Assembly (NCBI GenBank): GCA_965218465.1
Contig: OZ244623.1
Span: 2,868,097-2,932,096, forward strand
From: Acidobacteriota bacterium
Lineage (GTDB): Bacteria; Acidobacteriota; UBA6911; RPQK01; G965218465
Direction: 5' to 3'
DNA: 64,000 bases
Below are positions 4,385 through 31,919 of the stretch, in pieces (the stretch's first letter is position 1; every line of letters starts with the position of its first letter). Position numbers and translations under genes: made by a program. The notes beneath the pieces were generated by a model. It ran no database searches and was not told the DNA's origin. It saw only the letters and a list, made by a program, of their open reading frames with translations.

Positions 4385-6697
4385 TCAAGGAAGGGAAAGA
4401 CTGTCGAGCAGTCTCCGGGCCGTCACGTCCTGCGGCGCCAAGTCGACCAGTTTACGGGCGAAACGGCGAGCTTCCCCAAGTCGTCCCGCATCCCGGTTGA
4501 TGGTGGCCAAAGCATAGATCAGATCACGATTGGCGGGATGTTTCTGGTGGCAAGTCAACAAAATATCGAGGGCCTGACCGGTATTGCCGGTTGAGTGGAG
4601 CGCCACGCCATAAACATAGCCGTAACGGGGCAGATCGGGTCGCAGCAGGAAAGCTCGCGCCAGGCTGGCGACCGCCTGGTCGGAGCGCCGAAGCCGAACC
4701 AGCAACAGCCCCAGAGCGTGGTGTATGTCGCCATTGTCGGGTTCGATCTCCAAGGCTCGCCGCAGCAACGGCTCGCCTTCCGCATCCCGATCCTGTAGAC
4801 GGTAAAGATCGGCCAGATTGACGTAAGCGGAAACAAAGGTGGGCAGCAATCGCAACGCGACTTCGTACTCGGTTTCGGCCTCCTTCAGCTCACCTCGCCG
4901 GGTGTGGACTAGAGCCAGGTTGAGGTGGGACTCTGCCCGGTCGGCGTTGAACATCTGGGCAGAGCGGTATTCGGTCAGAGCCGCTTCCAGCCGGCCGCGC
5001 TGATTGGAAGTGGTCAAGTTGGCAGGAAGATCCGCCAAGAGACGAGCTGCCTCCTGGCGCACGCTTCCCGCCGGATCGTTGAGCAAGGGCATTCCCAACG
5101 AGGCTCGCCGTCGCGTCGAAGTTCCTTCGAGACTCCTTAGCGCGGCCAAGCGCACCAGCGGATCGTCATCTCTTAGCCCGCGCGGAAGCACGCTCAGCGA
5201 CAACGGGCTCAAATATTGCCCCAGCAGGGAAAAGGCTGTTGCTCGGGCGATAGCCGGGACTTCCTGGTTCTCGGCAACAGCGATCAGTTGCCTCTCGGCA
5301 TCGACCTGCCCCACTCGACCCGCGTGCAGGGCGTAACCGTAGTTGGGCCGGCTAAGCCGTTCGCTCCCGTACCAGTCAGCCACTCTGTCTGCCGCCCACT
5401 CTACCGTTCGGTCGCCGTGGCATCCGTTACAAGCATTGGGTGTCCCGAGTTGGAGCGAGAGATCGGGCCGCGGGACGCGAAAACTGTGATCACGGCGTGG
5501 GTCGACCACCATGTAGTTGCGGGCAGGCATGTGACAATCCACACAATTGGAGCCTTGGCCCGACTCGTGAAAATGGTGTTGCGGGGTGTCGAAGGTATTG
5601 GCCAGATGGCACTGGTTACAAAGTTGATTGCCCGCGAAGAGCAGCTTCCCGCTATGAGAATCATGGCAGTTCTGGCAAGTCACCCCCTGTTCGTGCATCC
5701 GACTCTGGAGAAAAGAGCCGTAAACAAAGACTTCATCCAGAATCTGACCATCGGGGTAATAGAGGCCTTCATCCAACAAAGCCACTTGGTAGGAATCGGC
5801 CAGGGGCTGGCCTGGCCGGTAGTGCTGGAGTTGGGCTCGCCGTGAATGGCAACGACCGCAGATCTCGATTTCGAGGCTGAAGGCGCCGGGTTGGCGGCGC
5901 TGGGCTGTGGCCGCGCCTTCGAAGCTCCAGGCATCGGCGTCTTCCTTCGTCAGGTGGACGAGGAGACCGTTTCCGGTTTGCCAATCACTGATTTCTCCTC
6001 GAGCAGCGGCCCGAGCCCAACTCAGATGGTGGGAAGCCGGTCCGTGGCAGGCCTCGCAGGAGACATCGATCTCGGAGAAAGTGGTTTCGAACCGATCTTG
6101 AGCCGCGTCGTACGATTTGCGCAGGTTGGTGGAGTGACACTCGGCGCACTGATGGTTCCAGTTCTGAAAAGGTCCTGTCCAATGGAGAATATCGCGGTGG
6201 TCGATCGTCTCCCCGGGATAGAGGTGGAACCAGCGTTGACCTCCTTGCACAGCCGGTCGGGTATCCCAGGCAATGCTCAGTGCCTGGTAGCGTCCTCGGG
6301 GAAACTGGATCAGGTATTGCTGCAGCGGCTCCACTCCGAAGGTATACGCAACCGGATAATCGCGTAAGCGGCCATCGGGTCCGTCAGTGCGAACATAATA
6401 TCTTCCCCCCCGTTGGTAGAAGGTGGACGTGACCTCTCCGTAGGTGAACTTTGCCCCGCTGAAATCGCCTAGAACGGTGGCATCGGTGGCCAACTGCATG
6501 GCCAGGTCGTGGTGAGACCCTTGCCACAACTTGGTCTGCTCGAGATGGCACTCGACGCATGACTCCCGGCCCACGTAGACCGGCGTGCTGGTGCTGGTTG
6601 GGGCGGTCCCATCCGAGTTCGAAGACAGCCACAGGAAGAGGATTGCCACCACAGCTACCGCGGCGAGACCAACCACAATCAGGCGCGCATTCTTCAT
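4385..6697 (-). CDS. multihaem (8x CXXCH) c-type cytochrome fused to C-terminal TPR repeats, membrane-anchored
   Basis: Eight CXXCH haem-binding motifs (CVECH, CAECH, CEACH, CGRCH, CQNCH, CNQCH, CVDCH, CNGCH) in the N-terminal two thirds. TPR-like repeats in the C-terminal third (…AESHLNLALVHTRRGELKEAETEYEVALRLLP…). Likely start MKNARLIVVGLAAVAVVAILF (signal anchor) at 6697; the ORF extends to 6751. Confidence 0.75.
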   Translation of the reverse strand: MKNARLIVVGLAAVAVVAILFLWLSSNSDGTAPTSTSTPVYVGRESCVECHLEQTKLWQGSHHDLAMQLATDATVLGDFSGAKFTYGEVTSTFYQRGGRYYVRTDGPDGRLRDYPVAYTFGVEPLQQYLIQFPRGRYQALSIAWDTRPAVQGGQRWFHLYPGETIDHRDILHWTGPFQNWNHQCAECHSTNLRKSYDAAQDRFETTFSEIDVSCEACHGPASHHLSWARAAARGEISDWQTGNGLLVHLTKEDADAWSFEGAATAQRRQPGAFSLEIEICGRCHSRRAQLQHYRPGQPLADSYQVALLDEGLYYPDGQILDEVFVYGSFLQSRMHEQGVTCQNCHDSHSGKLLFAGNQLCNQCHLANTFDTPQHHFHESGQGSNCVDCHMPARNYMVVDPRRDHSFRVPRPDLSLQLGTPNACNGCHGDRTVEWAADRVADWYGSERLSRPNYGYALHAGRVGQVDAERQLIAVAENQEVPAIARATAFSLLGQYLSPLSLSVLPRGLRDDDPLVRLAALRSLEGTSTRRRASLGMPLLNDPAGSVRQEAARLLADLPANLTTSNQRGRLEAALTEYRSAQMFNADRAESHLNLALVHTRRGELKEAETEYEVALRLLPTFVSAYVNLADLYRLQDRDAEGEPLLRRALEIEPDNGDIHHALGLLLVRLRRSDQAVASLARAFLLRPDLPRYGYVYGVALHSTGNTGQALDILLTCHQKHPANRDLIYALATINRDAGRLGEARRFARKLVDLAPQDVTARRLLDSLSLP

Positions 6698-6799
6698 AGG
6701 AGAAATTGTAGAGCAATCTTGGCTGCCCTCGCAGGGCTGTTTTGGGCCCAAAGATGGAATAGATACAGGTCCAAGTCAGAACCCGATGCGAGGAACCCC

Positions 6800-7079
6800 G
6801 ATATGGCGGGGGTAAGCTTGTTTCATCCGGGTGGGCAACAGACCCGATCGCGCTCGATCCCGGTACGCGTCGCCGATAAATCTCCGACTGCCCGTACAGT
6901 GGCACGTGCTTCGCATACTTCGACACCAGCACGTGCGCCAGCAAACCTGTCCCGGCCACGATGTAGTAGACCTCCGAGCCGTTCCCACCCGTCACCTCGT
7001 CCAGGAGCCAGTAGAACGGAATCTCGGCTTCGCAGGAGTAGCGGTTACAAACGAGTTGGCAGCAATCGCCGTTGCTCAT
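6800..7079 (-). CDS. hypothetical small Cys-rich protein (zinc-ribbon-like CCxxxC...C)
   Basis: N-terminal ~90 aa of ORF 6384..7079 reads MSNGDCCQLVCNRYSCEAEIPFYWLLDEVTGGNGSEVYYIVAGTGLL... The rest of that ORF overlaps the cytochrome gene and is probably not coding. True stop unclear. Confidence 0.25.
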
Positions 7080-7269
7080 ACCGGGACATAATGTGAGTTA
7101 AAGTGTGCCTTTAGGAACTGGTCTGACTTATAATGAAGTGATGTCAATTGGCATGGTCATCTCCCCGACAAGATCAATGTCGTGAGCGTTGGTGGCCTCA
7201 ATTTCCCTTGTGCTGTCCCCTTGGTGATAATCCTGTCGCTGGGCACGCTTGACAGGAGGCTTCGCAGGT

Positions 7270-9024
7270 ATGGCGTTTCAGACCGCAATAACGATCAGTA
7301 AGGCACTCGGATCCATCCAACGCCGGGAGTACGTCTTACCAGCGATCCAACGGGAGTTCGTCTGGCAGCCCAACCAGATCAACCGTCTCTTCGACAGCCT
7401 CATGCGAGGGTACCCGATCGGCTCGTTCCTGTTCTGGGTCGCGAAACGCGAAAGTATCGAACAGTACAAGTTCTACGACTTCATGCTCGACTACCACCAG
7501 ATCAACAACCCTCGCTTAGCGTCCGTCGGCGCGGTTGATCGAGACGAGATCACGGCGGTGCTCGACGGACAGCAACGCCTGACGGCCCTGAACATCGGCC
7601 TGCGCGGCAGTTACGCAAACAAGCTGCCGCGCATGTGGTGGGACAACCCGGCCGCGTTTCCCAAGCGGCACCTATACCTTAACATCCTCGCCGAGGCACA
7701 GGAAAACGAGGCGGGCATGCGGTACGACTTCAGTTTTCTCACGCGGCAAGAGGCCGAACATCGGGACGAGACGCACTGCTGGTACGCCGTCGGCGATGTC
7801 TTCAAAGCGAAGAGTGCGGTGGACCTCTTTACCTTCATTCGCAAAAAGGAACTTGGCCATCTAGCCGACCCGTTTGACGTACTAGCTCAACTCCACAAGG
7901 TCGTACACACGGATCCGGTCATTTCGTACTACGAGGAGGAGAGTCAGGACCTCGACAAAGTCTTGGACATCTTTATCCGCACCAACAGCGGTGGCACGAC
8001 GCTGAGCTATTCCGACATGCTCATGAGCATGGCCACGGCGCAATGGAAGAACCTGGATGCCCGCGAGGCGATTCACGGGACAGTTGACCAGATCAACCGA
8101 ATTGGGGACGGCTTCGGGTTTTCCCAGGACTTCCTGCTTAAAGCTGGCCTGATGCTGGCCGGCGTAGGCAGTGTGCGATTCAAAGTCACGAATTTCAACC
8201 GCGAAAACATGAAGCTTCTCGAGGACCGTTGGGATCCTATCACGCGTGCGGTCCGCGTCGCCGTGGAACTGGTAACAAGGTTCGGTTTCTCGCGGGGTAG
8301 TCTCAGTGCGAATAACGCCGTCCTGCCCATCGCGCACTACCTGTATCAACGAGGCACTCCCACTGGATTTTTGTCTCACGCCAAGCATCGCCATGATCGC
8401 AATGCGATCCGTCGCTGGCTGATCCGCTCGCTACTCAAGCGGGGGATCTGGGGCAGCGGTCTCGACTCCCTGCTGACTGCGCTGAGAAGCGTGATCGCCA
8501 CGCACGGTGGCCAAGCGTTTCCAACGGCCCAGGTGGAAACGGCGATGCGAAGGCGAGGAAAGAGCCTGACGTTCGAGGAGGAAGAGCTCAAGGATCTTGT
8601 GGAATCTAAGGACCGCACGTTTGCCCTGCTGTCCCTCTTTTATCCCTTCGTCAATGTTCGGAGTAACAAGTTCCACATCGACCACGTATTTCCGAAGAGC
8701 CGATTCTCCTTCAAACGACTGCGCTCGGTCGGTGTGCCCAAGGACGACATTCGTGTTTTCCAGGATCGCGCCGACCGCCTCCCGAATCTGCAGCTGCTCG
8801 TTGGTGAAGTGAACGAGAACAAGAGCGACACACTGCCGCATCAGTGGATGGCAGAGACCTTTGATGCCCAGGAGGCCACGGAGTACGCCAAGCAGCATGA
8901 CCTTGGCGACGTCCCGGTCGACATCACTGGCTTCACCGCATTCTACAAAGGCCGCCGCGACCGCCTCCTCGGCAGGCTGCGGAAGCTGCTCGGTGCTGAC
9001 GGGCACGAGCTCTCAGCTGAGTAA
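7270..9024 (+). CDS. GmrSD-family type IV (modification-dependent) restriction endonuclease: DUF262 (ParB-like, DGQQR) + DUF1524 (His-Me/HNH-like)
   Basis: N-terminal DUF262 signature (PAIQREFVWQPNQINRLFDSLMRGYPIGSFLFW; DGQQRLTAL). C-terminal DUF1524-type motif (FHIDHVFPKS ... NLQLLVGEVNENK). AGGAGG RBS 10 bp upstream of ATG 7270; the longer ORF starts at TTG 7249. Confidence 0.75.
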   Translation: MAFQTAITISKALGSIQRREYVLPAIQREFVWQPNQINRLFDSLMRGYPIGSFLFWVAKRESIEQYKFYDFMLDYHQINNPRLASVGAVDRDEITAVLDGQQRLTALNIGLRGSYANKLPRMWWDNPAAFPKRHLYLNILAEAQENEAGMRYDFSFLTRQEAEHRDETHCWYAVGDVFKAKSAVDLFTFIRKKELGHLADPFDVLAQLHKVVHTDPVISYYEEESQDLDKVLDIFIRTNSGGTTLSYSDMLMSMATAQWKNLDAREAIHGTVDQINRIGDGFGFSQDFLLKAGLMLAGVGSVRFKVTNFNRENMKLLEDRWDPITRAVRVAVELVTRFGFSRGSLSANNAVLPIAHYLYQRGTPTGFLSHAKHRHDRNAIRRWLIRSLLKRGIWGSGLDSLLTALRSVIATHGGQAFPTAQVETAMRRRGKSLTFEEEELKDLVESKDRTFALLSLFYPFVNVRSNKFHIDHVFPKSRFSFKRLRSVGVPKDDIRVFQDRADRLPNLQLLVGEVNENKSDTLPHQWMAETFDAQEATEYAKQHDLGDVPVDITGFTAFYKGRRDRLLGRLRKLLGADGHELSAE

Positions 9025-10273
9025 CCACAAGACTCCGGAAAAGTCGCGGGTGGTGGATGTAGCCACAGGTTTGGGGCAATTCTGGGGGCATCTTCAAACA
9101 CCGATAGACAGTTTATCCAATAGAATCAACGATTTATTCTCGCTTTAGTGAGGAGGAGCACGACCCCCCGCGGAAGTTGGCATAGGTTTGAAAAATGCTA
9201 ACCCTCCGGCTACCGATCTAGGCATCCAATCAGGGGGCGCTCCCGTTGGCCCAGAGAGCCCCGCCCAGAGGGACCGCTGCTGGTGCCGAGACGCAAGCTC
9301 AAGGCAGACAACTACGTAGGCCAAGAAGGTTAAGTGGATACTATAAGGAAGAGTGTGAGCGCACCGAGGAATGGCTCTCCGGCGCACACAAGAAATTTTA
9401 CGCGATGTGCACTCGCCGGTCGACGGACACTCTCCGATTGACGTTCAAGACTACCCTCCGGGGAGCCAGCCGGAGCGTCCTCTCGCGAAGCCTCCGTCGT
9501 CGCTCCGGGGCTTAAGGTCCGCTGGAGCTCCTTAAACTCGGCGATCCACTTGAGCCCGGCGAGCAGATCCGCATACTCCTCAAACCCTCAACGTTCCCCT
9601 TGAGGGTCGGCTCGATTCAGCCGATCTCACGGCAGTCTTAACGCTGTCAAGAAGGCGGCAGATTGTCACGGGACCGGTGCGGCCTTTGGCTGAGTCTAGT
9701 TAGGTTAGTTAGGTAGGCCTCGCTACAAGAGTAGACCTGTCGTTGTGATCGTATCAGACCAGATACCCAATATGGCCAGGGCAGGGTGTCCCGAAGGTAT
9801 CCCTATGCTTGTTGAGCTTTGTGTCCATTGGTCGAGCTCTTGGGAATCTCTTAGCACAAACCGGGCACTGAACCTTGTAGGGCTTGGGGCTGAGGAAGCG
9901 GGTGCTCTTGGTTTCGAACGTCGTGTCTGTGTCCCTCGCCGAAATAGGGATTCTCCTCTTGGTCACCGGCCTTGGACAGCTCGATCGGATACTGTGGCTG
10001 GAACGAGCGGTCCACATCGTTGGAATCGGCAAAACCCACACGGATAAACGGAGCTCCGAGCGTGCCCTTTTGGGAGAGCGACGCTCAAGTCGGTCGGGGC
10101 GAACCTGGGGACTTCACATTATTGATTCCGCATTGATTCCGCATCTCAATTCCCAAAGGGTGATCGATAGGGTGACAAGAGCCTCAGATACGCAATACAA
10201 ATACAAGTGACAAAATGACTTAGGACAGTTCCAACAGCGGACTGGTCGAAAGCCCTATTTCGACTATCTCCGG

Positions 10274-11149
10274 TTACAACATGCCGATCCACCGGTCGAG
10301 ACCCATTTCTGCACCTTCTCTATCTCGGACGATTACGACGCCGGCCAGATCAGGAGACCTCGAATGGAAGTCGGCAATCATCCCCGGGGCGTCCAATTCC
10401 CTGTTCGGATGTACACGTTCCGCTTCCTGAAATAGGTCCGGTAACTCGGTCGTAGGCTCGAATGGCGGCACAAAATCCAGGTCAGAATCTCCCGCATCTC
10501 TGCCGGTAGCAAACAACCGTGAGAGTGCGTCTGCAGCCGCGCCAGCTGAACCTTTCGCGCCTTGCAGCCCGCTACCCTGGGAGCACAGAAGGCAGTGCAA
10601 AGGCATCGAGTGGTGTCGGTGACAGTCAAAACTCGTGTCAGGCTTCTCATGCTGCACGGCGATCGCCGATGCCAGGGCAATGCCCCAGCTCTCCAGACAG
10701 GACCAACGCAACCCGGCTAGCGTACCGCAGGAGCTGTGTGGAACACGGCTTGCGTCGAACAAATGGTTGTAGAACGCATAAACCGGCGGGAGCCTATAGT
10801 ACCTCGCACTCGCGATGAGCTGGTCCATCTGCTTTTTCTTGTAGAGCGACTGATAGCCGCGGTCGTTGTCGTCTAGGCGCTTCGCCTGCACGAGCATTCC
10901 CTGGCAGTAACGTCCGTCCGGATCTACAAACGCCCAGGCCCAATCCGAACCGATGCGGGCCTCACGGTGTTTGTTAAATGGAACGATCTTTACGTCGCCG
11001 GGGAAGTGCAATTTGAGACCGAGGAGCAGCCCTTCGGTAACCGTCTCCTCGCTAAAGCTCAAGCCGGTGCGCTTGGCCGCGCCGCGACGACGCCATGTAT
11101 CTCTTGACAGTTGCAGAAGGCAGTGTTGCTGCGGCGTAAACGCGTACAT
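10274..11149 (-). CDS. hypothetical protein, possible PD-(D/E)xK-fold nuclease-like
   Basis: 292 aa from MYAFTPQQ... Segment ...KIVPFNKHREARIGSDWAWAFVD...GMLVQAKRL fits a D...(E/Q)xK restriction-endonuclease-like core. No other motif recognised. The 60 codons upstream in the ORF are probably not coding. Confidence 0.4.
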   Translation of the reverse strand: MYAFTPQQHCLLQLSRDTWRRRGAAKRTGLSFSEETVTEGLLLGLKLHFPGDVKIVPFNKHREARIGSDWAWAFVDPDGRYCQGMLVQAKRLDDNDRGYQSLYKKKQMDQLIASARYYRLPPVYAFYNHLFDASRVPHSSCGTLAGLRWSCLESWGIALASAIAVQHEKPDTSFDCHRHHSMPLHCLLCSQGSGLQGAKGSAGAAADALSRLFATGRDAGDSDLDFVPPFEPTTELPDLFQEAERVHPNRELDAPGMIADFHSRSPDLAGVVIVRDREGAEMGLDRWIGML

Positions 11150-11852
11150 TGTGACGTGACTAACCAAGTCTACGGAAATGCTGTTCCATCCGCAACGCGC
11201 CGGGATACGGTGTCCACCTTGAGTGGCGAGCGGCAGGACGCACCTCGGACATCCAAGTATGAAACGGCCACGGACGCATCCGTACAAAATGGCACCGGTA
11301 TTGCGGCCTAGGAGAGTCGTGTCAACGACCATCGCGAATGAGATACTTTCCGTCCGAACTAGGGCCTGCTGGGAACACCCCGCGTACAGCCATGTTGCAG
11401 CATCCGCTCACCTTTCGCTCGCTGCCCCTCAAGAGGGCGTTGTCATGGCGCAAGCGGTGCCCTAGATGGGCGGCGAGGAACGGCGCTTGCCTCCAGGTAT
11501 CCTCCTTCAACTTAGTGCACCCGGACAAGATCTCTCTCGAGCCAGTCGATCAATGGATGGTGTTATTGTCACATAGCTCCGTAGCGCCCGGTCGGGGTCT
11601 TCGCATAAAAAATTGATCGATAGGTTGCACGGGTCGCCGGATTCCCAACGCCGACCGTGAACACCATCGGTCCAACAACGACGAGGTTTCCGATGAGGCC
11701 TCCCACGTGGTCGTCTTGTTCGTCCATGATCCGGCAGAACTCGTGCAGCTCTGCCGGATCCAGATCCGCGGAGTCGTCTCTGCCGGCGAGTCGACTAGTG
11801 ATGCGCCATCGGTCATCCGTGGAGCCTGCGCTCGCTGAAGGCTTTCCAGGAT

Positions 11853-11903
11853 GGGGTTCGTACCGGCCGCTGCCAGGCCAGGACGCCGGCCGGTACGAAC
11901 CCC
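11853..11903. repeat. perfect 17-bp inverted repeat (GGGGTTCGTACCGGCCG / CGGCCGGTACGAACCCC) with 17-nt loop
   Basis: Read directly: 11853-11869 is the exact reverse complement of 11887-11903. No T-tract follows on either strand. Confidence 0.6.
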
Positions 11904-12232
11904 GCAGTGCATCTGGACCTAATTTTCATTGAGGCAAGCACCGGCCCCCTCTTTGCTTGTGTCCTCTGGCCTGGATCCTCCTGTCTACTGTCAGCGCGCG
12001 GTGAGCCCGCCTTGCACGGCGTGCTCCGCCCCCTCCCCGGCCCGGGGTTTCGCGGCGATCGGCATCGACGCCCAGATCGAAGCTCATGCCGCCACCCTCG
12101 AACACAGTCAGGACATAGCTCACCCAGTAGTCCCGTCTGTCCATTCCTGAGGCGCATCCACTCTCCCACCGGGACAACCAGCAGCGTGGTGAATATATTC
12201 CTCCACAGGCTCGTACAGACGGCACTCGGAGA

Positions 12233-12608
12233 TTGAACCGGCCCCTTGTCGCAGTAGCCGTTTCGACCCTCGCGAGTACACCTTGTCGGGCGCGGAGGCT
12301 GGCGAGGAGCTGGACGCATTCCTCGAGCAGCTGGGACCGAGCCGGCCCCGGTCACGGCCGAGCAACTTGCAGCGGCGCGGCGGGCATGTCGGCGCTTCGG
12401 CAAGGGCAAGCATCCGGCGGCTTTGAATTTCGGCGACTGTTTCGCGTATGCGCTCGTCCGGGTAACAGGCGAACCGCTATCGTACGAGGGCGACGACTTG
12501 CTCGCACCGACATCTTGGCGACCGTTCTGCTTCCACATGGGGAGACCGTTTCAGGGGAGTCTCTTCGCCGATCCAGCAAACATGTTTATACTTGGTAGTT
12601 TGATATAA
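12233..12608 (+). pseudogene. VapC-family PIN-domain toxin, frameshifted/decayed
   Basis: Frame 0 (12258-12608) encodes ...PVTAEQLAAARRACRRFGKGKHPAALNFGDCFAYALVRVTGEPLSYEGDDLL..., a textbook VapC C-terminus. The N-terminal PIN half is missing from that frame. A different frame (ORF 12233) gives MNRPLVAVAVSTLAS..., loosely resembling a PIN N-terminus but lacking the first catalytic Asp. No intact antitoxin gene recognised upstream. Confidence 0.45.
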
Positions 12609-12691
12609 GCGACCTAACATGAGGGACATCACGGCCTGGGAGAGCCCCAGGAAATCACCCTCTTGCACCACAATGGAAACGGAGAGCCGAT

Positions 12692-13348: not shown

Positions 13349-13992
13349 GAGGGCGGAGTAGATCCCCGCATGCGTTGGGGTTGAGCCCGGTGGCCATCTG
13401 GGTATGGCTCGGTCAGAACAACCCGTGCCCGTCCCTCGATCAGCGATTAGCAAGAGGTCCGCAGATTTGCCAGTTCCTTCTCGATCTGGCCCGAGACACG
13501 CTGCGTTACATCCTCTGATCTTCTCCCGCCATCTTCATGTTCCTAGGAAACATGAGAACCCTTGGCGTTCAACCGTTGCTCCGAGCGGGGACCGGCCGAT
13601 GGAGCAGAATGCCCTTGTGACCGACTCCAGCTCATTCCAGCCCTCTTTGCCGTCGGGCGCTGAGGCGTTTGGCGACCGCGCCAAGGACTGGAACGGAGGT
13701 CGTTTTGCAGACACCATTTTGAGAATCAGCTAGGAAAACCAACCATGACCACTTGGGCAAGGCGATCACTTACGGGGCGGCCTTGGATGCTGCTACGATA
13801 GTCTGGATCGCGAGTGACTTCTCCGATGAACACAAGAAAGGTCTGGATTGGCTCAACGATAACAGTTCCGGTGATTGCACGCACGCTCACCCTTCGGCTC
13901 GAAGCAGTCGGCCTCGACATCGCGCTTCTCATCAGCGGCTGTTGAGGCCGACCATGCTGCGGGCCGGCAGTACAGTCAAATCGCGACATCAA

Positions 13993-14706
13993 ATGGCACG
14001 TGTATACAAGTTTCTTCCCCGAAAATGGGCTCTTGACGACATCAAGAAACAGCGCATCAAAATTTCCGGGATTTGTGATCTCAACGACCCTTTCGAGCTG
14101 ATCCCATTCGTTCTCACTTCCAGCAAACACCGACAACAGCTTGTTGATGCGCGCCGGGCCCTGTCTGCCCTTGGCAGGGGTATGTTGTGTTTCTCGTTTA
14201 AGTGGTCGAATCCGGTGTTGTGGGCGCACTACGCTGACAAGCACAAGGGAATTTGTCTCGGTTTCGATGTGCCGGCTGAGTATGCACGGAAGGTTGTATA
14301 CGTGGATACGCGCCAGCCGTTCCCGACGGAGTCGAACGACCAGATCGCTCAGGACTGGATATTCACCAAGTTCTCTGGCTGGCGCTACGAAGAAGAGTGT
14401 CGAATTTACGCGAAGTTAGAACAAGAAGAAAACGGGCATTATTTTGCGGATTTGAAAGAAAATACGATGACGCTTCGTGAGGTCATCCTTGGCTCGGACT
14501 GTCCGGTGGATTTCACCACGATCCGCGAGTTGGTGGAGCCTTACGGTGAGGAAGTCAGAGTGATCAAAGCCCGGCCTTCAGATGAATCTTTCGACATGAT
14601 CGAAACACAGGCGTCCTCTGTGAGTTCCAACCTGCGGCCGCCTGGAGGCAGCACATCTGGGGGGCCTGGGAACCCGGAACGGGATGGCCCGCGTGGTTGG
14701 CAGTAG
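13993..14706 (+). CDS. DUF2971 family protein
   Basis: Starts MARVYKFLPRKWALDDIKKQRIKISGICDLNDPFE, the YKY...L...I...S....NDPFE signature that opens DUF2971 proteins. The ORF is open in-frame from 13753, but the upstream 80 codons look like a different (remnant) sequence. Confidence 0.55.
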   Translation: MARVYKFLPRKWALDDIKKQRIKISGICDLNDPFELIPFVLTSSKHRQQLVDARRALSALGRGMLCFSFKWSNPVLWAHYADKHKGICLGFDVPAEYARKVVYVDTRQPFPTESNDQIAQDWIFTKFSGWRYEEECRIYAKLEQEENGHYFADLKENTMTLREVILGSDCPVDFTTIRELVEPYGEEVRVIKARPSDESFDMIETQASSVSSNLRPPGGSTSGGPGNPERDGPRGWQ

Positions 14707-15870: not shown

Positions 15871-18048
<2,178 letters not shown>

Positions 18049-19939: not shown

Positions 19940-20797
19940 TCAGTTTGCGGCGCTCCGCTCGGAGAGGAGCCTTTTATCGACGTCGACCAACCAATGCCGA
20001 CGCTTTTCCTGCGGGAGAGTTGTAAAGTGCCTAAGCGCAATCCCGTCGCGAATATCGCCGCAACATCTCACCTCTCCATCGGGAAGGATGGCGATATCGC
20101 CAGAATCATAGGCTGCGTGACAATACGCACACAGACATATCCCGTTTGCGGGATTTGCCCTCTGGCTTTTATCGGATGCATAGCTTCGGATATGGGCAGC
20201 ATCGAGCACGGACGGAAGTTGAGTTCCACAAACTAGGCAGGTGTACTCGTGGCGCGACAGGACTATGGCGCGGAACACGCGCATACGGCTGCGACGTCTC
20301 ACAAGGGACCATGCATCATCCACGTGCCAATCGGCCTCATTCATCTGGACCGCCGGGGCCTTCGCTTGAAAAGCGGAATCCAAAGCTGCGTCGAGGAGAC
20401 GAACAAACAGATCTCGTTCTAATTGAGGCATCGAAATCGACCAGCCGATACTGTTCAAGTCTTTCGGGAGTCCGATTGACAACCGATTATGTCTACCAGG
20501 CTTGGTGCGCGTCGAAAGATCAAATAGTTTCGGAAACCAAACAACGTCCGCAAGATGCGCCGTGAACAGTCGCGTGACCTTCGCGCTTCGCCGTTCTCCT
20601 TCATTGGCCGGCCGTTGCGTCACCTTCGACACGCGTCCAGCTCCGGCCAAACCATATTGCGGGCCACTTTTCTTGAGATAGATAAACTCGTCTCCAGCTT
20701 GTACTTTTACCGAATGAGTATTGTCATAGACATACTGTTTGCCGGGAATGTCGGGGTAACTGCTTTGATCTGAAACCTTGAATATCCAGTAGCTCAT
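19940..20797 (-). CDS. HNH endonuclease with N-terminal PUA/EVE-like putative modified-base reader domain (type IV restriction-like)
   Basis: C-terminal HNH motif (YTCLVCGTQLPSVLDAAHIRSYASDK...NGICLCAYCHAAYDSGDIAI). N-terminus MSYWIFKVSDQSSYPDIPGKQYVYD...GDEFIYLKK...GAGRVSKV resembles the YWLxK/GD..FYH/G.G.V layout of EVE/PUA-like domains, assigned tentatively. The start is 4 bp after the vsr stop. Confidence 0.6.
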   Translation of the reverse strand: MSYWIFKVSDQSSYPDIPGKQYVYDNTHSVKVQAGDEFIYLKKSGPQYGLAGAGRVSKVTQRPANEGERRSAKVTRLFTAHLADVVWFPKLFDLSTRTKPGRHNRLSIGLPKDLNSIGWSISMPQLERDLFVRLLDAALDSAFQAKAPAVQMNEADWHVDDAWSLVRRRSRMRVFRAIVLSRHEYTCLVCGTQLPSVLDAAHIRSYASDKSQRANPANGICLCAYCHAAYDSGDIAILPDGEVRCCGDIRDGIALRHFTTLPQEKRRHWLVDVDKRLLSERSAAN

Positions 20798-20801
20798 CGT
20801 C

Positions 20802-21224
20802 TCACCGGCGAGACTGTCCGGCCCGCTTTCTGACCACTTCTTCGATGCGGTCCACACAGGATTCCGCATCCCGCTCCACCTCATGCTCCCAGATGCGGAT
20901 GACTAACCATCCCTCCCGTCGGAGCTTATTGGAGGTTCGCCGATCCCTGTAGCGGTTGCCCTCGATCTTCTTCCTCCAATAGGGGTCGAGTTTGTGCCTC
21001 CACCGGGAGAACTGCCAACCGTGCCAGAAGTCGCCGTCGACGAATACCGCGACTTTCGCACGTACAAAAACGAGATCAGGCCGTCCTGGAAGTCCGTTCT
21101 TGTGTTTACGGAACCGTAGGCCGCGCGCATGCACAAACCTGCGAATCGTCAGTTCGGGAGTCGTGTCCTTGCTTCGGATGCGGGACATCGTGAAGCTGCG
21201 TTGTTCCGGCGTCAGGTTGTCCAC
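20802..21224 (-). CDS. vsr: very-short-patch repair endonuclease (T:G mismatch nicking, 5mC deamination repair)
   Basis: 140 aa with the Vsr signature KDTTPELTIRRFVHARGLRFRKH...LPGRPDLVF...KVAVFVDGDFWHGW. Confidence 0.8.
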   Translation of the reverse strand: MDNLTPEQRSFTMSRIRSKDTTPELTIRRFVHARGLRFRKHKNGLPGRPDLVFVRAKVAVFVDGDFWHGWQFSRWRHKLDPYWRKKIEGNRYRDRRTSNKLRREGWLVIRIWEHEVERDAESCVDRIEEVVRKRAGQSRR

Positions 21225-21248: not shown

Positions 21249-22415
21249 CTAGCCAGCAGCATCGTCCTGCGGAAGTCTCCAAACGGCAGTCCATGCCTTG
21301 TCAACTCGGATCAACGGCGCGTCCCTGTCCGTCTTCATCTGCCGTCCATGGACTACGCGGACAGCGTCCCCGACGTCGGGCAGATCCATGTCGTCCATTC
21401 TCATCCATTTACTTGGAATCTGCTCGATTGAAACGCGTTGTCCAAACACTGTCCCGGCCTGCCTCGATAGGACCAAAGTCGTGAGCGAGACGCCCTGAAC
21501 CTGTCGGCTCTCTATCTCAGCAATGTTCCCCTCCACGTGTGATCCGCAGTCCGTAGCCCATTCGGGTTGCGCTTCAGTCCAGAATGGACCACAGAATGGC
21601 AGACATGGGCAAAACGAGCAATTGCCGGGAGACGGAGAGGCGAGATCTCGGAAGGAAGCTCCCTCGGAGACCGCGGCATTAAATCTACCAAGCTGTTTCT
21701 TCGCACAGTCGGCCTCGGCCTCGGCCTCGGCCGGCGAAATCGCGAATTCACAGCGCTGTCCGTCACCTCGTACAACCGCACCCGTGCTTACGTCTGTTCC
21801 GTTCTCTGCGGCAATATATGCGTACAGTCGAAGTTGGCGCGCCTCAGAATCGGACACAATACCCCCCTCGGCTTCAGACATATGCCCTGTTTTGTAATCT
21901 ACAACTACGCCGGCCCGGCCGTCGATATAGTCGGCCCGGCCGACGACCCGGCCATCCCTCGAACTAAGACGGGATTCCGTCCTCACTGCTGGAGAAGCTA
22001 ATCTCGCCGCTTCAGCGGCAGAACTGGCCGACGGCATTCGAGACAAAGCGATGGGAGTTGCCGTAAGTGCAGCCCGTTCGCGGTTCAGGTGGTAGAAGGG
22101 CAGGCGGTCCGCAGAGGGGAACTTCAACTTGACCAAGCGGTGGGCGCCCAGATGAAGTTTCTGCGCCGTCTTGTCGAACAGCCGCCTTGCCGGAGAGCGG
22201 TCGCTGACGGCTGCCACCGGGAGCTCCCCTCTATGCGCGGCCGCCACAACCACATGGAAAGCCGTTCCTAGGATCGCCGCCGGGTGCTGAGGCAGAACAC
22301 CGACATCCCCAAAAGCGAACCATGCCGCCTTGGCGAGGCAGTGTATGCTGGCTTCATAGATGCTCGGTGTAATGCGCTTGAGCTGAGCTAGAAGCGGCGG
22401 CTCCGGGACGATCAT
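21249..22415 (-). CDS. RecB-family PD-(D/E)xK nuclease with Cas4-like C-terminal Cys cluster
   Basis: Motifs GRADYIDGRAGVVVDYKTG (motif II/III, hhhDYKTG) and QLRLYAY (QxxxY). C-terminal CSFCPCLPFC is a putative Fe-S/Zn cluster as in Cas4/AddB nucleases. Confidence 0.65.
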   Translation of the reverse strand: MIVPEPPLLAQLKRITPSIYEASIHCLAKAAWFAFGDVGVLPQHPAAILGTAFHVVVAAAHRGELPVAAVSDRSPARRLFDKTAQKLHLGAHRLVKLKFPSADRLPFYHLNRERAALTATPIALSRMPSASSAAEAARLASPAVRTESRLSSRDGRVVGRADYIDGRAGVVVDYKTGHMSEAEGGIVSDSEARQLRLYAYIAAENGTDVSTGAVVRGDGQRCEFAISPAEAEAEADCAKKQLGRFNAAVSEGASFRDLASPSPGNCSFCPCLPFCGPFWTEAQPEWATDCGSHVEGNIAEIESRQVQGVSLTTLVLSRQAGTVFGQRVSIEQIPSKWMRMDDMDLPDVGDAVRVVHGRQMKTDRDAPLIRVDKAWTAVWRLPQDDAAG

Positions 22416-22430
22416 GCTGTCATCAACTCC

Positions 22431-25400
22431 TCATTCATAAGGAAACCGAACAGCACGAAATACTGACCGCAGAGTCACGCTAAAGCCCTGCCCTTGCGCG
22501 TCTGAAACGGCGGCGGCCACCTCCGGGCGGAAGTTGGACGAATCCGTGTCCCAAAGCGGGTGGGTCAGGATAATGGCTTCATTGTTGAATGGATCAACTC
22601 CTCCGGACAATGCATCGAAGGTCCTCGTCTTCATTTGGAGGCCCTCGAAATAGGTCGGAGCAATACGGGCGACAAGATCGGACCAGTGGCTTGTGGTGAG
22701 ATCAATACGGGCGTTAGGATCAAGGGCCAGTTGCGCCATGTCGAGCCCCAACCTCCAGTCGAGTATTGGGTGAAAGGCCATGTTTCCGAATTCACGAAGA
22801 CAGCGGTGGCAAGAATTGACACAGTCATGGCTGTGCGGCGGCGTCACGAGCAGTCGATGAAACGAGTCGGGTGGAGTGCTCCGCGTCCAGGAGGGGCGCG
22901 CCTGCCCTAGGACAAACCGGAGGAGTTCTTCGAAGCGGACGGAGTCTCCTAGGAACGTGCTGTATCCAGCTCCGTTTTCCAGGTTGTCGGAGATGAAGAT
23001 GCGGGCGGTCGGTGGCGCGAACGGCGTGGAGAGGTCGGCAATAGGCTGGATTCCGAGGTCGAGTTCAGAATCATTTACGTCGAGGCTGACTGCGGCGGCC
23101 CGCCGGACAAGGAATCCGAAGGAATACCATGCGGCCTTCGCCTCCGGCTTGGATGGATTCAGGCAGAGTCCCACTGAGACAACGTTGATTCCGGCAGCCA
23201 TGACATCCGTATTGGATATGGCGCCAAGAGCACGCCGGACTCCGGGCGTCGCCGAATCGAACGACGGCCGTTGAATCCGTCCCCGCTCGGCGGCAGGAAG
23301 GTCGCGAAGAGCACTATCGAACGCTTCCTCAACCATCCAGAAATTTTGATTCGCTAGCTTTCGGAATTCGAAGTCGCTCCCATCGTTGTCGTTGATGCGG
23401 TAGATTCTGGCGGAGCCGCTGTCGATGCTGAAGTTTCTGTGAGTCCTGTAGTTGTCCAGCCCAGCCCCCATGCGGGCCCTCAAGGCCCTGGGCGTGAATT
23501 GGAAGCCACCCCGAAACTCGGCGCGGTCGGATATCGTCCACCAAGTGCTGAATCCAGGAGGTTCGGTCAATTCCGCTAGTCGATAGCCGTCCGGTCCGTG
23601 CGCGGCCGAACAATATGGGCACCTACCCGACTGCTCAGGCTGGGTAACCAGGGCCTGGCATCGACGGCATACGCCAACAATCTCTGACTCTCCGAGTGGA
23701 TTCGGCGCCAGGGCGACGCCCCCCATATCGGGGACGAATTCAACCACTCCGACGGCCGTGTGAAGCTTGTCGTCTTTGATTGACTGTGCACCAGGCGCAA
23801 ACTGGCTGATGGCGATGTCAAGTTCGCGGTCGATAATCCCGTACTGAGGAGGCCAGCGGATTGGTTGCTTATGATGCAGGAGGCGCGTTCGCGTCGGGAA
23901 GCCAAACATTGGAAGTACACCGTGGGAGGCCAAACGTTCGCTAAGCGCATGATGCGTGTTGCTGCTGCCGGCGATTTCATCGATCCGGTCGAGCAACTCC
24001 GTTTTGACGTACTGGGTGATGCTCGTAACGCCAGCCGTGTTGTCCATTGCAGTTCGACGCAGAATGTGGTGTCCGATGTCCTCGATAAATAGTCCGTTGA
24101 CAGCAATCCAGTCTGAGACGGTCTGTCGATAACCGGACCACTTCCCGACGGTTCCAAACTCTCCATGAACATTCTCGCCTGAGTGCTCGATCTCGATGCC
24201 TTCAAACGAATGCCGAAGTACTTCTTTGTTGACGACTCGCTGCGCGATTTCCGGCCGCGAAACATCCACATACGGGCGAGGTGGCGGCTCAGCTGTAATT
24301 AGATGAGGCCGTTCAAAATAATAGTCATCGTGGCTGCGGCCCCGGCAGAGCGTCAATGCTGCTGACATTCCAAGACCCCTCCGTCCGGCACGTCCGACCC
24401 TCTGCTGGTAGTTGAAACGGATGGGGGGCATGTTCGCCATGCCGATCATCTGCAGCGATCCGATGTCTACGCCCGCCTCCATGGTTGTAGTGACGCTGAG
24501 GAGGTCCACTCCGAAGGCCTTTTCAAGTTCTCGATCAAGGAAGATCTCCTGGAACCATCTCTGTCGGTCGATGCGGTCGTCACGGTCCGTCTGTCCAGTG
24601 AGTTCCTCGCAGTTGAGGCGAAACGGATCGTCGTTGCATCGAGCCAGGTATTCATAGAAGTCCATTTCGCTGGCGTCCGAAGCCGTGGGATGGCGATGCG
24701 GCGCGTTCGGAAGCCGATTCCGGCAGACCGTACAAATACCGCCGGACGCATGCAGGTGGACGGAACCGCATCTTTGGCAAGAGAAGACATCGATGCACAC
24801 GTCCGTTCCAGGGACGGGGGTCAACACGTAAAGGCGTTGCGGGACAACCAGCCATTGATCCACGGCGTCGCTCAACAGAGTTAGGATGTCCTCCAGCAAT
24901 GTAGCTGCGTCGAGCCCATTGAGATCGGCGACGGCCTGAGCGTACCGGCGGATGTCTCGGGGCGCTTGAAGTCTGCCGTCCGACGCCGGAGTCCAACGGA
25001 ATCTCTTTGCTAGCATTCTGACTATGGAAGCCGCCGCGCACTCCTGCACAGTAGCTGGCCCCGAGTCATTGATCCAAAGGAGCCCAAGCCTCAGCGACTC
25101 GAAGTCACGGCTTCCCCCTGCGAAGAGAACGTCGTTTATGACGGAGCGCAACAACTCGGCTTCAATTCGATCCCGCAACTCCTGCTCAACCGGCTGAAGG
25201 TCCAGCCGATATCTGTGCTGCTCCACGTTCCAGTCGAAGATGTCCGTCCAAGGGATCGTCGTTGTCTGCCACTTATACTCCCTTACGCCTGGCAATGGCC
25301 CACCCGGATTTATCCCGATTCGTAGGAGCGACTCTCGCACGAAATCCACAAGGGCGTTGAACGACATGCTGCCGAAGCCGGTAGGCGGCGAGGGGCGTTG

Positions 25401-27962: not shown

Positions 27963-27978
27963 GGGTCTATTTCACTCG

Positions 27979-28875
27979 TTAGGGCAGGACGGTAACTCCA
28001 GGGTGCGGTTGACCGGCGGCGACCATCAGCAGAGCGGCCACTTCGGGGGTTACATCGAAGTAGACAAACCGTCCGTCAATTAATTGCGCAGGACGGCACG
28101 CACAGAGACATGCGGCTCGGGAATATAGTGCTGGCATCGGTGCGAACAACGGCACACTCAACTCCAGGGAATGAGGCTCGTAATCAATCAGACGAACCCC
28201 CTTCAGCATGGCAGCCGCATAGAGGGACTCCCGCTTGGGCATCCTCAACAGCTTCCCGCTTCTTCTGCGAACGTAGTATTGGGGTCGGCCGTAGGTGGGC
28301 GTAAACTCACACGCCGCATTCGGCAAAAGTCCGTCGACCCACGCGCGTATGCCAAGGTCGAAGAACCGGGCCTTCCAGTTTAACGGGGCTGGTTCCTGAG
28401 CCGCGGCCTCGAATACGCATGGAATGGGAGGAACGTTTTCCGCAATTCGTCTCCCGTTATCAGGTTGATAAGCCACTCCAATGTGGCTGGAGATTTCGGC
28501 AATCACCCGCCTTTCACCAACGACACGGAAGGATGTCGGACAGTCCTTGAGGGCTTCCTCTTGGAGCTTGCCTCCATGCACTTTAGCCCCGTTCCTTAGC
28601 GCCTCGACAAGAGCAGGAGTGCGTCTTCCATAAAGGACGGCAGCATCCGCCTGGGCGGCAAGGCCTCCAAGGACGGGCGGCAGCATGTTCCACCGCTGAG
28701 AACCATCTACAAAAAAATCGGTGAAGCCGAGATCCGACAAACCAACTCTCAGTGCGCGGGACAACTCCAGCGGATCACGATCTCCACTTACAATCTCCTC
28801 AGCCGCCTTTCGAAACCTTATCCATGACCCCTCTCCCAAGTGGGTCATCCATGTCAGTAACAGATCGCAGTTCAT
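27979..28875 (-). CDS. hypothetical protein (positionally DruG-like)
   Basis: 298 aa with no recognisable motif. Its start overlaps the upstream gene's stop by ATGA (translational coupling). A 17-bp gap separates it from the helicase gene. Confidence 0.5.
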   Translation of the reverse strand: MNCDLLLTWMTHLGEGSWIRFRKAAEEIVSGDRDPLELSRALRVGLSDLGFTDFFVDGSQRWNMLPPVLGGLAAQADAAVLYGRRTPALVEALRNGAKVHGGKLQEEALKDCPTSFRVVGERRVIAEISSHIGVAYQPDNGRRIAENVPPIPCVFEAAAQEPAPLNWKARFFDLGIRAWVDGLLPNAACEFTPTYGRPQYYVRRRSGKLLRMPKRESLYAAAMLKGVRLIDYEPHSLELSVPLFAPMPALYSRAACLCACRPAQLIDGRFVYFDVTPEVAALLMVAAGQPHPGVTVLP

Positions 28876-31800: not shown

Positions 31801-31919
31801 AGTCCGAACCGAGACAACACGGAGAGTAACGCCTTCAATATTTGTGCGGTGATCCGTCCCAAGTCAGAGTTCCAGCAGGAATTCGCCGATTGCCTTCGAC
31901 ACAAGCGGACACACCGCAT
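28872..31919 (-). CDS. large hypothetical protein with ~330-aa acidic low-complexity N-terminal region and ~680-aa C-terminal globular domain (positionally DruF-like)
   Basis: 1015-aa ORF. N-terminal third is D/E/S/T/P-rich (…EESQVEESVKPIQVGSVTEGETDSETVATETPKPLVQEK…). A more likely start is GTG at 31820, because the ORF's first 56 bp overlap the methyltransferase gene. The stop overlaps the next gene's ATG. Confidence 0.5.
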   Translation of the reverse strand: MRCVRLCRRQSANSCWNSDLGRITAQILKALLSVLSRFGLASEASLTPDKDQPGVHQSALASTDDGSGDQLSDQPIEAGSTNTLEESQVEESVKPIQVGSVTEGETDSETVATETPKPLVQEKQPIRDANPGSESGPSSEGGFGEEIVSVDEAMEHDPTRYPVQMGVDESSAEEPPRNVETGHEAATPCTVREGRMTNGNEDGDDSARPEVAGAGDSGVDHRSVHEDTSQIDEVAPRSDPHPPLDVQHKGITTISSPNAGERTAEDASAGTLSTSPASLLNENRCGRDASPEAHRTTSVGVGKSESGCMDRPQAEEEPQKPTEEDVWATADDWRDPSPRQLTLPEDAHEYLVAVQDVSAVDHEYARWNTAVVEQLLLAGPSSEEALLCVNPRILARVFEEAGLGPITPEQAEQQFTTAVANLYQGHVLQHSARLRVLRRCSADGSPDCAAFLAGSVLAAFRMQSDEELSGNAYYRRLADLLKCEMHGAHPPGFNPAVFESLWVFLHTWLRKAHRRQLAMPKSDTGFRRFVALPLTHVPLRSLDIEKLPVFFSWAGYQPGARVRHDRLLSDLRRWQQSRNMLTPTATSALYDDRSAAISAQASAELEAWDGSFCESPSRRSALVEIQFDVVQRSPVFFYLPRRPPGFPKVFGDGKRVFEASDEGWYDPAQLRSEDGELLESGFEWLSHARGIDFTLRRSGALAIPFTPSSSYSGFLSSRRLLRGVRCSVLCCDNIVPIVKDYLSEVAQGLLSPVSHPLLPNGWSMFRDVSARVHVEAPATLEALEVDRKIKLIVAGGLRLGRRWSWLTGAPPRILVSGMEARDRIKVNGASVGVDASGELLAEGVFSEPGEYLVEAGSMRRRIAIERPQLSVQSQTELHESLDADRSRRIALPHGSWTLIGNSPDQVCYSDEEFFQGTIASCPFHPSWAIRVGAGPGAVVAVASYPSPPRMLTLRRLTVQTRKLIEQWSTVVYEAHIRRPRFVGLNGAVPDEGIVDGWKKYAALAKNIKRKLKKPQ

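Follow-up and report, generated by a model that had tools for sequence, protein, structure and literature searches.

A BrxU-like restriction gene and a DUF6615 gene in a decayed island of an Acidobacteriota genome

We analysed a stretch of 64,000 nucleotides from an uncultured Acidobacteriota bacterium (GenBank assembly GCA_965218465.1, contig OZ244623.1, positions 2,868,097 to 2,932,096 of the forward strand), referred to here as the window, and focused on its positions 7270 to 11149. An earlier note on this DNA had described there a solitary GmrSD-like type IV restriction enzyme followed by a possible PD-(D/E)xK protein. The open reading frames (ORFs), the AGGAGG box, the DGQQR and HIDHVFP motifs of the first gene and the D...QxK residues of the second that it quoted are all present in the sequence. 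The two genes, designated here A and B, lie 1.25 kb apart with their 3' ends facing each other, so that their orientation is convergent and not divergent, as had been stated. Both belong to an island of about 9 kb (approximately 6.8–15.9 kb of the window), bounded on the left by a multihaem cytochrome/tetratricopeptide-repeat gene (4385–6751) and on the right by katG (15871–18003). Gene A is related to BrxU, an enzyme from Escherichia fergusonii pEFER whose structure (7P9K) was the first to be determined in the GmrSD family (PMC8565348). Gene B belongs to the Pfam family DUF6615.

Gene A and its BrxU-like product

Gene A and its immediate surroundings comprise the following features, where L023 and L050 denote the two closest related loci.

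7270–9024, + strand: gene A, BrxU-like ORF of 584 amino acids, intact, ATG at 7270 and TAA at 9022–9024
7254–7259, + strand: AGGAGG ribosome-binding site of gene A, 10 nt 5' of the ATG
7384–7398, + strand: RLFDS motif, residues R39–S43; S43 corresponds to BrxU S42
7564–7578, + strand: DGQQR motif, residues D99–R103; Q102/R103 correspond to BrxU Q101/R102
8674–8694, + strand: HIDHVFP motif, residues H469–P475; D471/H472 correspond to BrxU D474/H475
8785–8787 and 8812–8814, + strand: N506 and N515, which lie 3' of HIDHVFP, as does K518; all three are invariant
7163–7269, + strand: 5' leader including the ribosome-binding site, homologous (blastn) to L050 from 7163 and to L023 from 7191
9025–9147, + strand: 3' flank, homologous to L023 only (82.5% over 120 bp); homology stops at 9147
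6780–7079, − strand: IS66-family transposase fragment at the left island edge, adjoining the gene A cassette (DDE_Tnp_IS66, E 1.3e-6, positions 3–32 of 284 only)

The predicted protein begins with a DUF262 nucleoside triphosphatase (NTPase) domain, which a linker joins to a DUF1524-like HNH nuclease at the C-terminus, and an identical protein of 584 residues is present as a called protein (P0001) in a public contig. The N-terminal domain matched Pfam GmrSD_N (PF03235) with an E-value of 4e-30 (105.8 bits; cut-off, 33.2), and the PADLOC model HEC-05 (PDLC04151) covered residues 1–575 with an E-value of 1e-221 (model positions 20–594 of 600); HEC-05 is BrxU (bioRxiv 10.1101/2024.01.29.577857). 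A sequence search of the PDB retrieved the BrxU entries 7P9K and 7P9M (E 1.4e-169), with residues 3–574 of gene A collinear with 7P9K 2–578. The two proteins, of 584 and 587 amino acids, are each encoded by a single gene and are 47% identical in a global alignment. A search of NCBIfam with gene A gave no match. Because the match to the solved BrxU structure runs from end to end, we regard the domain identity of gene A as settled. By its sequence, gene A is an intact GmrSD-family type IV enzyme, an orthologue in the BrxU/HEC-05 subfamily. The proposal of a fused GmrSD-type, modification-dependent enzyme is thereby upheld by the matches to GmrSD_N, HEC-05 and BrxU and narrowed to one subfamily.

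The residues on which BrxU depends are retained. In BrxU, S42 is involved in both the dimer/monomer switch and nucleotide binding, Q101 and R102 are required for hydrolysis of nucleoside triphosphate (NTP), and D474 and H475 form the catalytic pair in the DHIYP motif; phage defence is lost in the S42A/D, Q101A, R102A, D474A and H475A variants (PMC8565348). All five essential residues have their counterparts in gene A (S43, Q102, R103, D471 and H472), and RLFDS, DGQQR and DH(I/V)(Y/F)P are common to both proteins. Across 26 homologues of gene A, down to 53% identity (alignment A2), S43, Q102, R103, D471, H472, N506, N515 and K518 were invariant, as were the complete DGQQR motif, F474 and P475, and H469 was nearly so. 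The C-terminal H-x-DH motif, whose absence on alignment the earlier note had named as a reason to abandon its reading, is therefore present, with D471 and H472 invariant and H469 nearly so in this set.

Gene A can also be placed among other members of the family. Eco94GmrSD and EcoCT GmrSD have a similar architecture, with fused DUF262 and DUF1524 domains, and cleave DNA containing modified cytosine in an NTP-dependent manner with no methyltransferase partner (PMC8565348). The founding GmrSD enzymes are distant, the identity between BrxU and GmrSD being 13% (PMC8565348). The RLFDS motif sets BrxU apart, being absent in SspE, GmrSD and HEC-06 (bioRxiv 10.1101/2024.01.29.577857); unlike GmrSD, gene A has RLFDS, and its match to the C-terminal GmrSD domain of Pfam (PF07510) is below threshold.

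The BrxU precedent indicates how gene A might act. BrxU is ATP-dependent, with a substrate preference for glucosyl-5-hydroxymethylcytosine (glc-5hmC), then 5-methylcytosine (5mC), then 5-hydroxymethylcytosine (5hmC), and it can be inhibited by the T4 protein IPI* (PMC8565348, PMC12409352); the cloned enzyme acts by itself (PMC8565348). By homology, the gene A product would rest as an intertwined homodimer, from which monomers would be released on binding of NTP at the DUF262 domain (RLFDS, DGQQR). NTP hydrolysis, depending on the Gln and Arg of DGQQR, and re-association on DNA would follow, and the HNH-type site near the C-terminus, comprising D471/H472 together with N506/N515, would then cut DNA carrying modified cytosine (glucosyl-hmC, 5mC or 5hmC). 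The expected outcome would be the restriction of phages with hypermodified DNA, for which a methyltransferase partner would be unnecessary. Both the enzymatic activity and the substrate range in this host are thus predicted by analogy with BrxU.

Several observations count against carrying these properties over in full. The match to Pfam GmrSD_C/DUF1524 (PF07510) reached 17.2 bits, under the 23-bit cut-off, with an E-value of 0.005 when the C-terminal 184 amino acids were searched; PF07510 was not reported on the whole protein, and the precomputed match is likewise missing in most of the close homologues. The Pfam scan that had been proposed for the two domains consequently bears out DUF262 strongly and leaves DUF1524 below threshold. 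In addition, BrxU N485, N519 and E528 are replaced by K482, E516 and Q525 in the global alignment. Of the corresponding BrxU variants, N485A behaves as the wild type, and N519A and E528A show weaker defence in vivo with in vitro cleavage unaffected (PMC8565348). At 47% identity the substrate range could deviate from that of BrxU, and the host differs too, being uncultured, non-enterobacterial and of 58% G+C.

In its genomic setting gene A also departs from BrxU, as it lies outside any bacteriophage exclusion (BREX), Hma or type I restriction–modification (RM) locus and stands alone beside the IS66 fragment. No methyltransferase was found within ~20 kb, and its close homologues are likewise solitary, with housekeeping genes around them (L020, L021) or islands rich in transposases and integrases as their setting (L023, L050), in agreement with the earlier description of a solitary gene. 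None of the homologue loci examined formed part of a BREX, Hma or type I RM locus. Homologues with 74–86% identity were found in metagenome-assembled genomes (MAGs) attributed to Caldilineaceae, Spirochaetia, Vicinamibacterales, Bryobacterales and Longimicrobiales.

The extent of the shared DNA was determined by blastn. The gene A module matched L050 over 7163–9033 (86.5% over 1880 bp) and L023 over 7191–9147 (83.5% over 1958 bp), and the DNA common to the gene A locus and these two loci was confined to 7163–9147. The ribosome-binding site and its spacing were kept in 8 of 9 related loci. Because homology is limited to the gene and short flanks, and the leader is conserved, we conclude that gene A travels as a cassette of ~2 kb with its own leader. 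The BrxU-like subfamily circulates as a ~2-kb promoter-plus-gene cassette among distant soil and sediment lineages, and in these environmental genomes BrxU-like genes are usually solitary, outside BREX or Hma. In itself gene A adds little that is new: BrxU/HEC-05 has already been characterised structurally and biochemically, and PADLOC would annotate the gene automatically.

Some 80–100 nt of the gene A leader, including GTCCCCTTGGTGA and the ribosome-binding site, are conserved in L017, L023 and L050, which are MAGs of different lineages, with unrelated sequence beyond. This conservation suggests a portable promoter/leader.

Gene B and the DUF6615 family

Gene B lies on the opposite strand and comprises the following features, L051 being the locus of its closest relative (>90% amino-acid identity).

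10274–11149, − strand: gene B, DUF6615 ORF of 291 amino acids, intact, ATG at 11147–11149 and TAA at the 10274 end
11033–11050, − strand: E34/E35/E39, predicted glutamates of helix alpha1
10943–10945, − strand: D69, predicted start of strand beta2
10880–10888, − strand: Q88-A-K90, predicted end of strand beta3
10583–10621, − strand: conserved His/Cys cluster H177–C189 (HRHHSMPLHCLLC)
11150–11340, − strand: conserved 5' region that moves with the gene (blastn against L051)

The gene B product, which is present at its full 291 amino acids as a called protein (P0121) in the same public contig as P0001, matched Pfam DUF6615 (PF20320) with an E-value of 3e-12 (46.7–47.2 bits; cut-off, 23.8). The same domain is carried by all listed homologues except a fragment of 174 amino acids (P0235). 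Conservation was assessed in an alignment of 35 homologues with 42–77% identity. E34, E63, G67, D69, W70, W72, F74, V87, A89 and K90 were invariant in the core, where E35, E39 and Q88 were conserved in at least 90%; beyond the core, Y99, Q107, Y127, N128, W155 and G156 were also invariant. The conserved positions of the His/Cys cluster are H177, H180, S181, H185, C186 and C189.

An AlphaFold model of gene B was obtained with high confidence (predicted local distance difference test, pLDDT, 88.4; predicted template-modelling score, pTM, 0.88). Its elements follow the order alpha(34–48), beta(51–57), beta(69–75), beta(82–91), alpha(104–118), beta(122–127), that is, an alpha-beta-beta-beta-alpha-beta core like that of PD-(D/E)xK enzymes. 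In the model the glutamates lie on alpha1, D69 starts beta2 and Q88-x-K90 ends beta3, a layout resembling that of canonical PD-(D/E)xK enzymes. Gln in place of the middle acidic residue is a variant seen in some members of this superfamily. When the model was compared with solved structures, the top match was the vertebrate Rab15 effector protein, Rep15, with a score of 8.5 (151 residues aligned), and the nucleases listed were Hjc (2wcw and 1gef, 6.5; 1hh1, 5.7; 1ob8, 5.0), RecU (6.5), I-Ssp6803I (5.3) and CinB, ThaI, BspD6I, SwaI, PvuII and NhoI (4.0–4.8).

In its predicted model, gene B resembles archaeal Hjc and bacterial RecU, which are Holliday-junction resolvases, and type II restriction endonucleases in the acidic residue of alpha1, the Asp with which beta2 begins and the x-K of beta3. 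It differs from these enzymes in having no detectable sequence similarity, in QxK instead of (D/E)xK, in an additional C-terminal region of ~150 residues with an H-x2-H-x4-HC-x2-C cluster, and in its occurrence as a lone island gene, in contrast to a recombination gene with a housekeeping role.

On this model, gene B most likely encodes a metal-dependent PD-(D/E)xK nuclease with E35/E39, D69 and Q88-x-K90 as its site, and the His/Cys cluster probably binds zinc in an accessory role. A number of points weigh against this assignment. The acidic position of the (D/E)xK motif is occupied by Gln; Foldseek against the PDB returned the same Hjc and RecU entries, none of them significantly (best E 0.16); and Rep15, which heads the structural matches, is a Rab effector without catalytic activity. 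PADLOC gave no match for gene B, we found no mention of DUF6615 in the literature, and DUF6615 was not found in viral contigs. Searches of NCBIfam and of PDB sequences also gave no match. We therefore consider the PD-(D/E)xK assignment moderately supported, because the structure comparison lists Hjc and RecU, yet Foldseek is not significant. As to the possible PD-(D/E)xK protein of the earlier note, the core fold and D69/K90 hold in the predicted model, whereas QxK and the Foldseek result do not favour it. Catalysis is suggested by the conservation of residues, and a role of gene B as a nuclease or in defence is likewise putative.

The resemblance to Rep15 was examined at the sequence level. 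Rep15 (PF15208, PDB 8A4A) and gene B have in common a GADW-x-W-x-F ... VQ motif, detected by hmmsearch with an E-value of 0.02; the Rep15 sequence used was checked against the PDB and matches chain 8a4a_A over all 236 residues. Aligning the DUF6615 profile with the single Rep15 sequence by hhalign gave a probability of 73% and an E-value of 3e-5 over 57 columns, from alpha1 to beta3. Rep15 differs from DUF6615 in lacking the lysine (VQTL versus VQAK) and the His/Cys cluster, and it binds a Rab GTPase. Gene B does not match PF15208, nor does Rep15 match PF20320. These data are suggestive of a tentative homology between DUF6615 and Rep15. Rep15 is reported to have no known relatives.

Gene B also moves on its own. 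In L051, only window positions 10242–11340 are matched (blastn, 92.3% over 1105 bp), and the neighbouring genes are unrelated to those of gene B. DUF6615 genes from Bradyrhizobium and from four further genomic contexts have as their neighbours genes for integrases and transposases, for a relaxase, and for type I RM, AAA_15 and HNH proteins. An all-against-all BLAST of the neighbours in 21 DUF6615 loci revealed no partner conserved across distinct loci. We take gene B to be carried singly, as cargo, by integrative and conjugative elements and by defence islands.

Two individual loci deserve mention. The DUF6615 island of L009 is apparently inserted in comM, fragments of the ChlI type and Mg_chelatase type (644–970 and 8938–9573) flanking an insert of ~8 kb that also encodes an N6/N4 methyltransferase. 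In the Bradyrhizobium loci (L001–L006, 6542–7912), DUF6615 is preceded on its own strand, at a distance of 89 bp, by a gene of 436–456 amino acids that matches nothing in Pfam and is not conserved at the remaining DUF6615 loci.

Relation between the two genes and rival readings

The interval between genes A and B contains one recognisable feature.

9757–10066, − strand: remnant of an AbiEii-nucleotidyltransferase/WYL/zinc-ribbon gene, last ~100 amino acids in two frames (9926–10066 and 9757–9909)

An ORF of 95 amino acids at 9754–10041 on the minus strand had been described as C2H2-like. In a HMMER search of 1.84 billion representatives, only its residues ~50–95 matched proteins, always at the extreme C-terminus of proteins of 220–470 amino acids with Pfam AbiEii and WYL domains. 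By tblastn, the homology is split into two high-scoring segment pairs in different frames, with the ~47 preceding residues encoded at 9926–10066 and the remainder at 9757–9909, and the N-terminal 100–350 residues of the AbiEii-type protein are missing. Pfam and PADLOC gave no match for the 95-residue ORF. A C2H2 zinc-finger gene is ruled out by the restriction of homology to the C-terminal half and by the frameshift. With its frame split and its N-terminal part missing, the ORF belongs to a pseudogene, the 3' end of an AbiEii-family gene that has undergone a frameshift and lost its 5' part.

The association of genes A and B implied by the earlier description was evaluated in related loci. By tblastn, DUF6615 was absent within 10 kb of 14 BrxU-like loci, as it was among the called genes of L050; conversely, 9 DUF6615 loci contained no BrxU-like gene, and no GmrSD gene was called in L051. 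A single two-component defence system, in which the type IV enzyme would be accompanied by an accessory PD-(D/E)xK nuclease, could be imagined from the location of both genes in the same island, 1.25 kb apart, and from the nuclease-like character of both. This is opposed by their convergent orientation with a dead AbiEii-type remnant in between, by the absence of co-occurrence in 15 BrxU-like and ~30 DUF6615 loci, by the lack of a conserved neighbour of DUF6615 in 21 loci, and by the finding that the nearest relatives of each gene have in common only its own module of 1.1–2 kb (blastn); moreover, cloned BrxU works alone (PMC8565348). The paired system was accordingly rejected on four grounds (tblastn in 23 loci, clustering of neighbours in 21 DUF6615 loci, the L050 and L051 contigs and the blastn module boundaries), and we consider it exceedingly unlikely. 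The region is, with good probability, made up of two independent, horizontally mobile single-gene modules in a decayed island, namely the BrxU-type gene A and the DUF6615 gene B, with a dead AbiEii-type remnant between them.

A second defence locus in the window bears on the function of gene A.

21249–33969, − strand: Druantia-like locus encoding a DruK-like PD-(D/E)xK protein, DruE (1843 amino acids), a DruL-like protein, a DruF-like protein (1015 amino acids) and DruM
31864–33969, − strand: DruM, C5-cytosine methylase, 23 kb from gene A and not a cognate partner of it
19940–20884, − strand: HNH endonuclease gene adjoining the Druantia locus

This locus is presumably the first defence patch to which the earlier note alluded. 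E. fergusonii BrxU cleaves 5mC DNA in vitro (PMC12409352), and the presence of DruM implies that host DNA would contain 5mC. The occurrence in one genome of DruM and of a BrxU-type gene, whose prototype uses 5mC DNA as a substrate in vitro, is a further point against an active enzyme of BrxU specificity. Because the two coexist, their specificities would have to be compatible or one of them inactive; the coexistence thus suggests selectivity for sequence context or density of modification, or an inactive partner. It is a natural case in which to examine how self-restriction is avoided by a type IV enzyme that cuts 5mC DNA.

Gene A might be a decaying or silenced relic, non-functional in its host. 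The pseudogene fragments around it (the IS66 fragment, the AbiEii remnant and the PDC-S11 fragment described below) would fit such a fate, as would the harm that an active 5mC-cutting enzyme could cause in the presence of a C5 methyltransferase. The frame is, however, full-length and uninterrupted, with a canonical ribosome-binding site; the essential residues are all intact and the upstream leader is conserved, and we judge a relic improbable. Still less probable is that gene A, rather than depending on modified cytosine, falls in another DUF262 branch, for example with the SspE-like nickases that sense phosphorothioate or with the DndB-like regulators. Weak PADLOC matches to SspE, HEC-06, NsnA and PDC-M55C over roughly the first 100 residues (E 1e-5 to 5e-20), together with the sub-threshold Pfam C-terminal domain, could be taken in its favour. 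These weak matches reflect only the shared DUF262 core, whereas HEC-05/BrxU matches over the full length and 200 orders of magnitude more strongly; gene A has the RLFDS motif that SspE, GmrSD and HEC-06 lack (bioRxiv 10.1101/2024.01.29.577857), and no dnd or ssp genes were present among the genes examined in window positions 1–34 kb.

For gene B, the alternative is a protein without a defence function: an inert PD-(D/E)xK scaffold, a Rep15-like protein-binding module or a structure-specific resolvase of mobile elements. Relaxases, integrases and transposases often adjoin DUF6615 genes, and no PADLOC model covers the family. On the other hand, D69 and K90 are invariant, Q88 is nearly so and the glutamates of alpha1 are conserved, as opposed to the VQTL of Rep15, and it is because these residues are kept that we favour catalysis. 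DUF6615 genes also have neither a conserved partner nor a constant placement with respect to recombinases, and a search of viral contigs yielded no member of the family. We regard this alternative as somewhat unlikely, although it deserves to be taken seriously. A more far-reaching proposal goes beyond the nuclease assignment we prefer: DUF6615 would be an unrecognised family of stand-alone PD-(D/E)xK nucleases, acting as a single-gene anti-phage or anti-plasmid module on integrative elements, and at the same time the bacterial homologue, possibly the evolutionary source, of vertebrate Rep15. Rep15 would then be a domesticated nuclease that has lost its catalytic activity. Taken as a whole, this proposal is speculative and rather doubtful. 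Gene B is nevertheless the only part of the locus with potential for discovery, as a member of a family with no literature, with a confident nuclease-like model, carried as single-gene cargo of mobile islands and tentatively linked to human Rep15 in a way not previously reported.

Remaining features of the island

To the right of gene B, two further features were recognised.

13753–13870, + strand: PDC-S11-like fragment of ~40 amino acids (PADLOC PDC-S11, E 1e-13, residues 1–40)
13993–14706, + strand: DUF2971/PDC-S31 candidate defence gene, apparently intact (PADLOC PDC-S31, E 1e-25; Pfam DUF2971)

Searches for structural signals across the region were largely negative. Rfam and ARAGORN returned no matches and no transfer RNAs, respectively, in the whole window, and scans for promoters and terminators gave the same counts as in shuffled sequence. 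A search for flanking repeats that could mark the ends of an element yielded nothing beyond short sequences present in two copies, as expected by chance, such as an inverted pair of 16 nt at 7199/14240. The spacer at 9148–9750 and the stretch at 11341–12690 had no homology in any comparison locus, and the ORFs scanned there had no Pfam match.

The island also encodes a secreted DUF1554-like protein, recognised by a sub-threshold match. The PDC-S11-like fragment reads in frame into the DUF2971/PDC-S31 gene, and this junction suggests a deletion or fusion scar. Finally, a perfect inverted repeat of 17 bp with a 17-nt loop (GGGGTTCGTACCGGCCG ... CGGCCGGTACGAACCCC) lies at 11853–11903, within the stretch 11341–12690, where no gene could be recognised.

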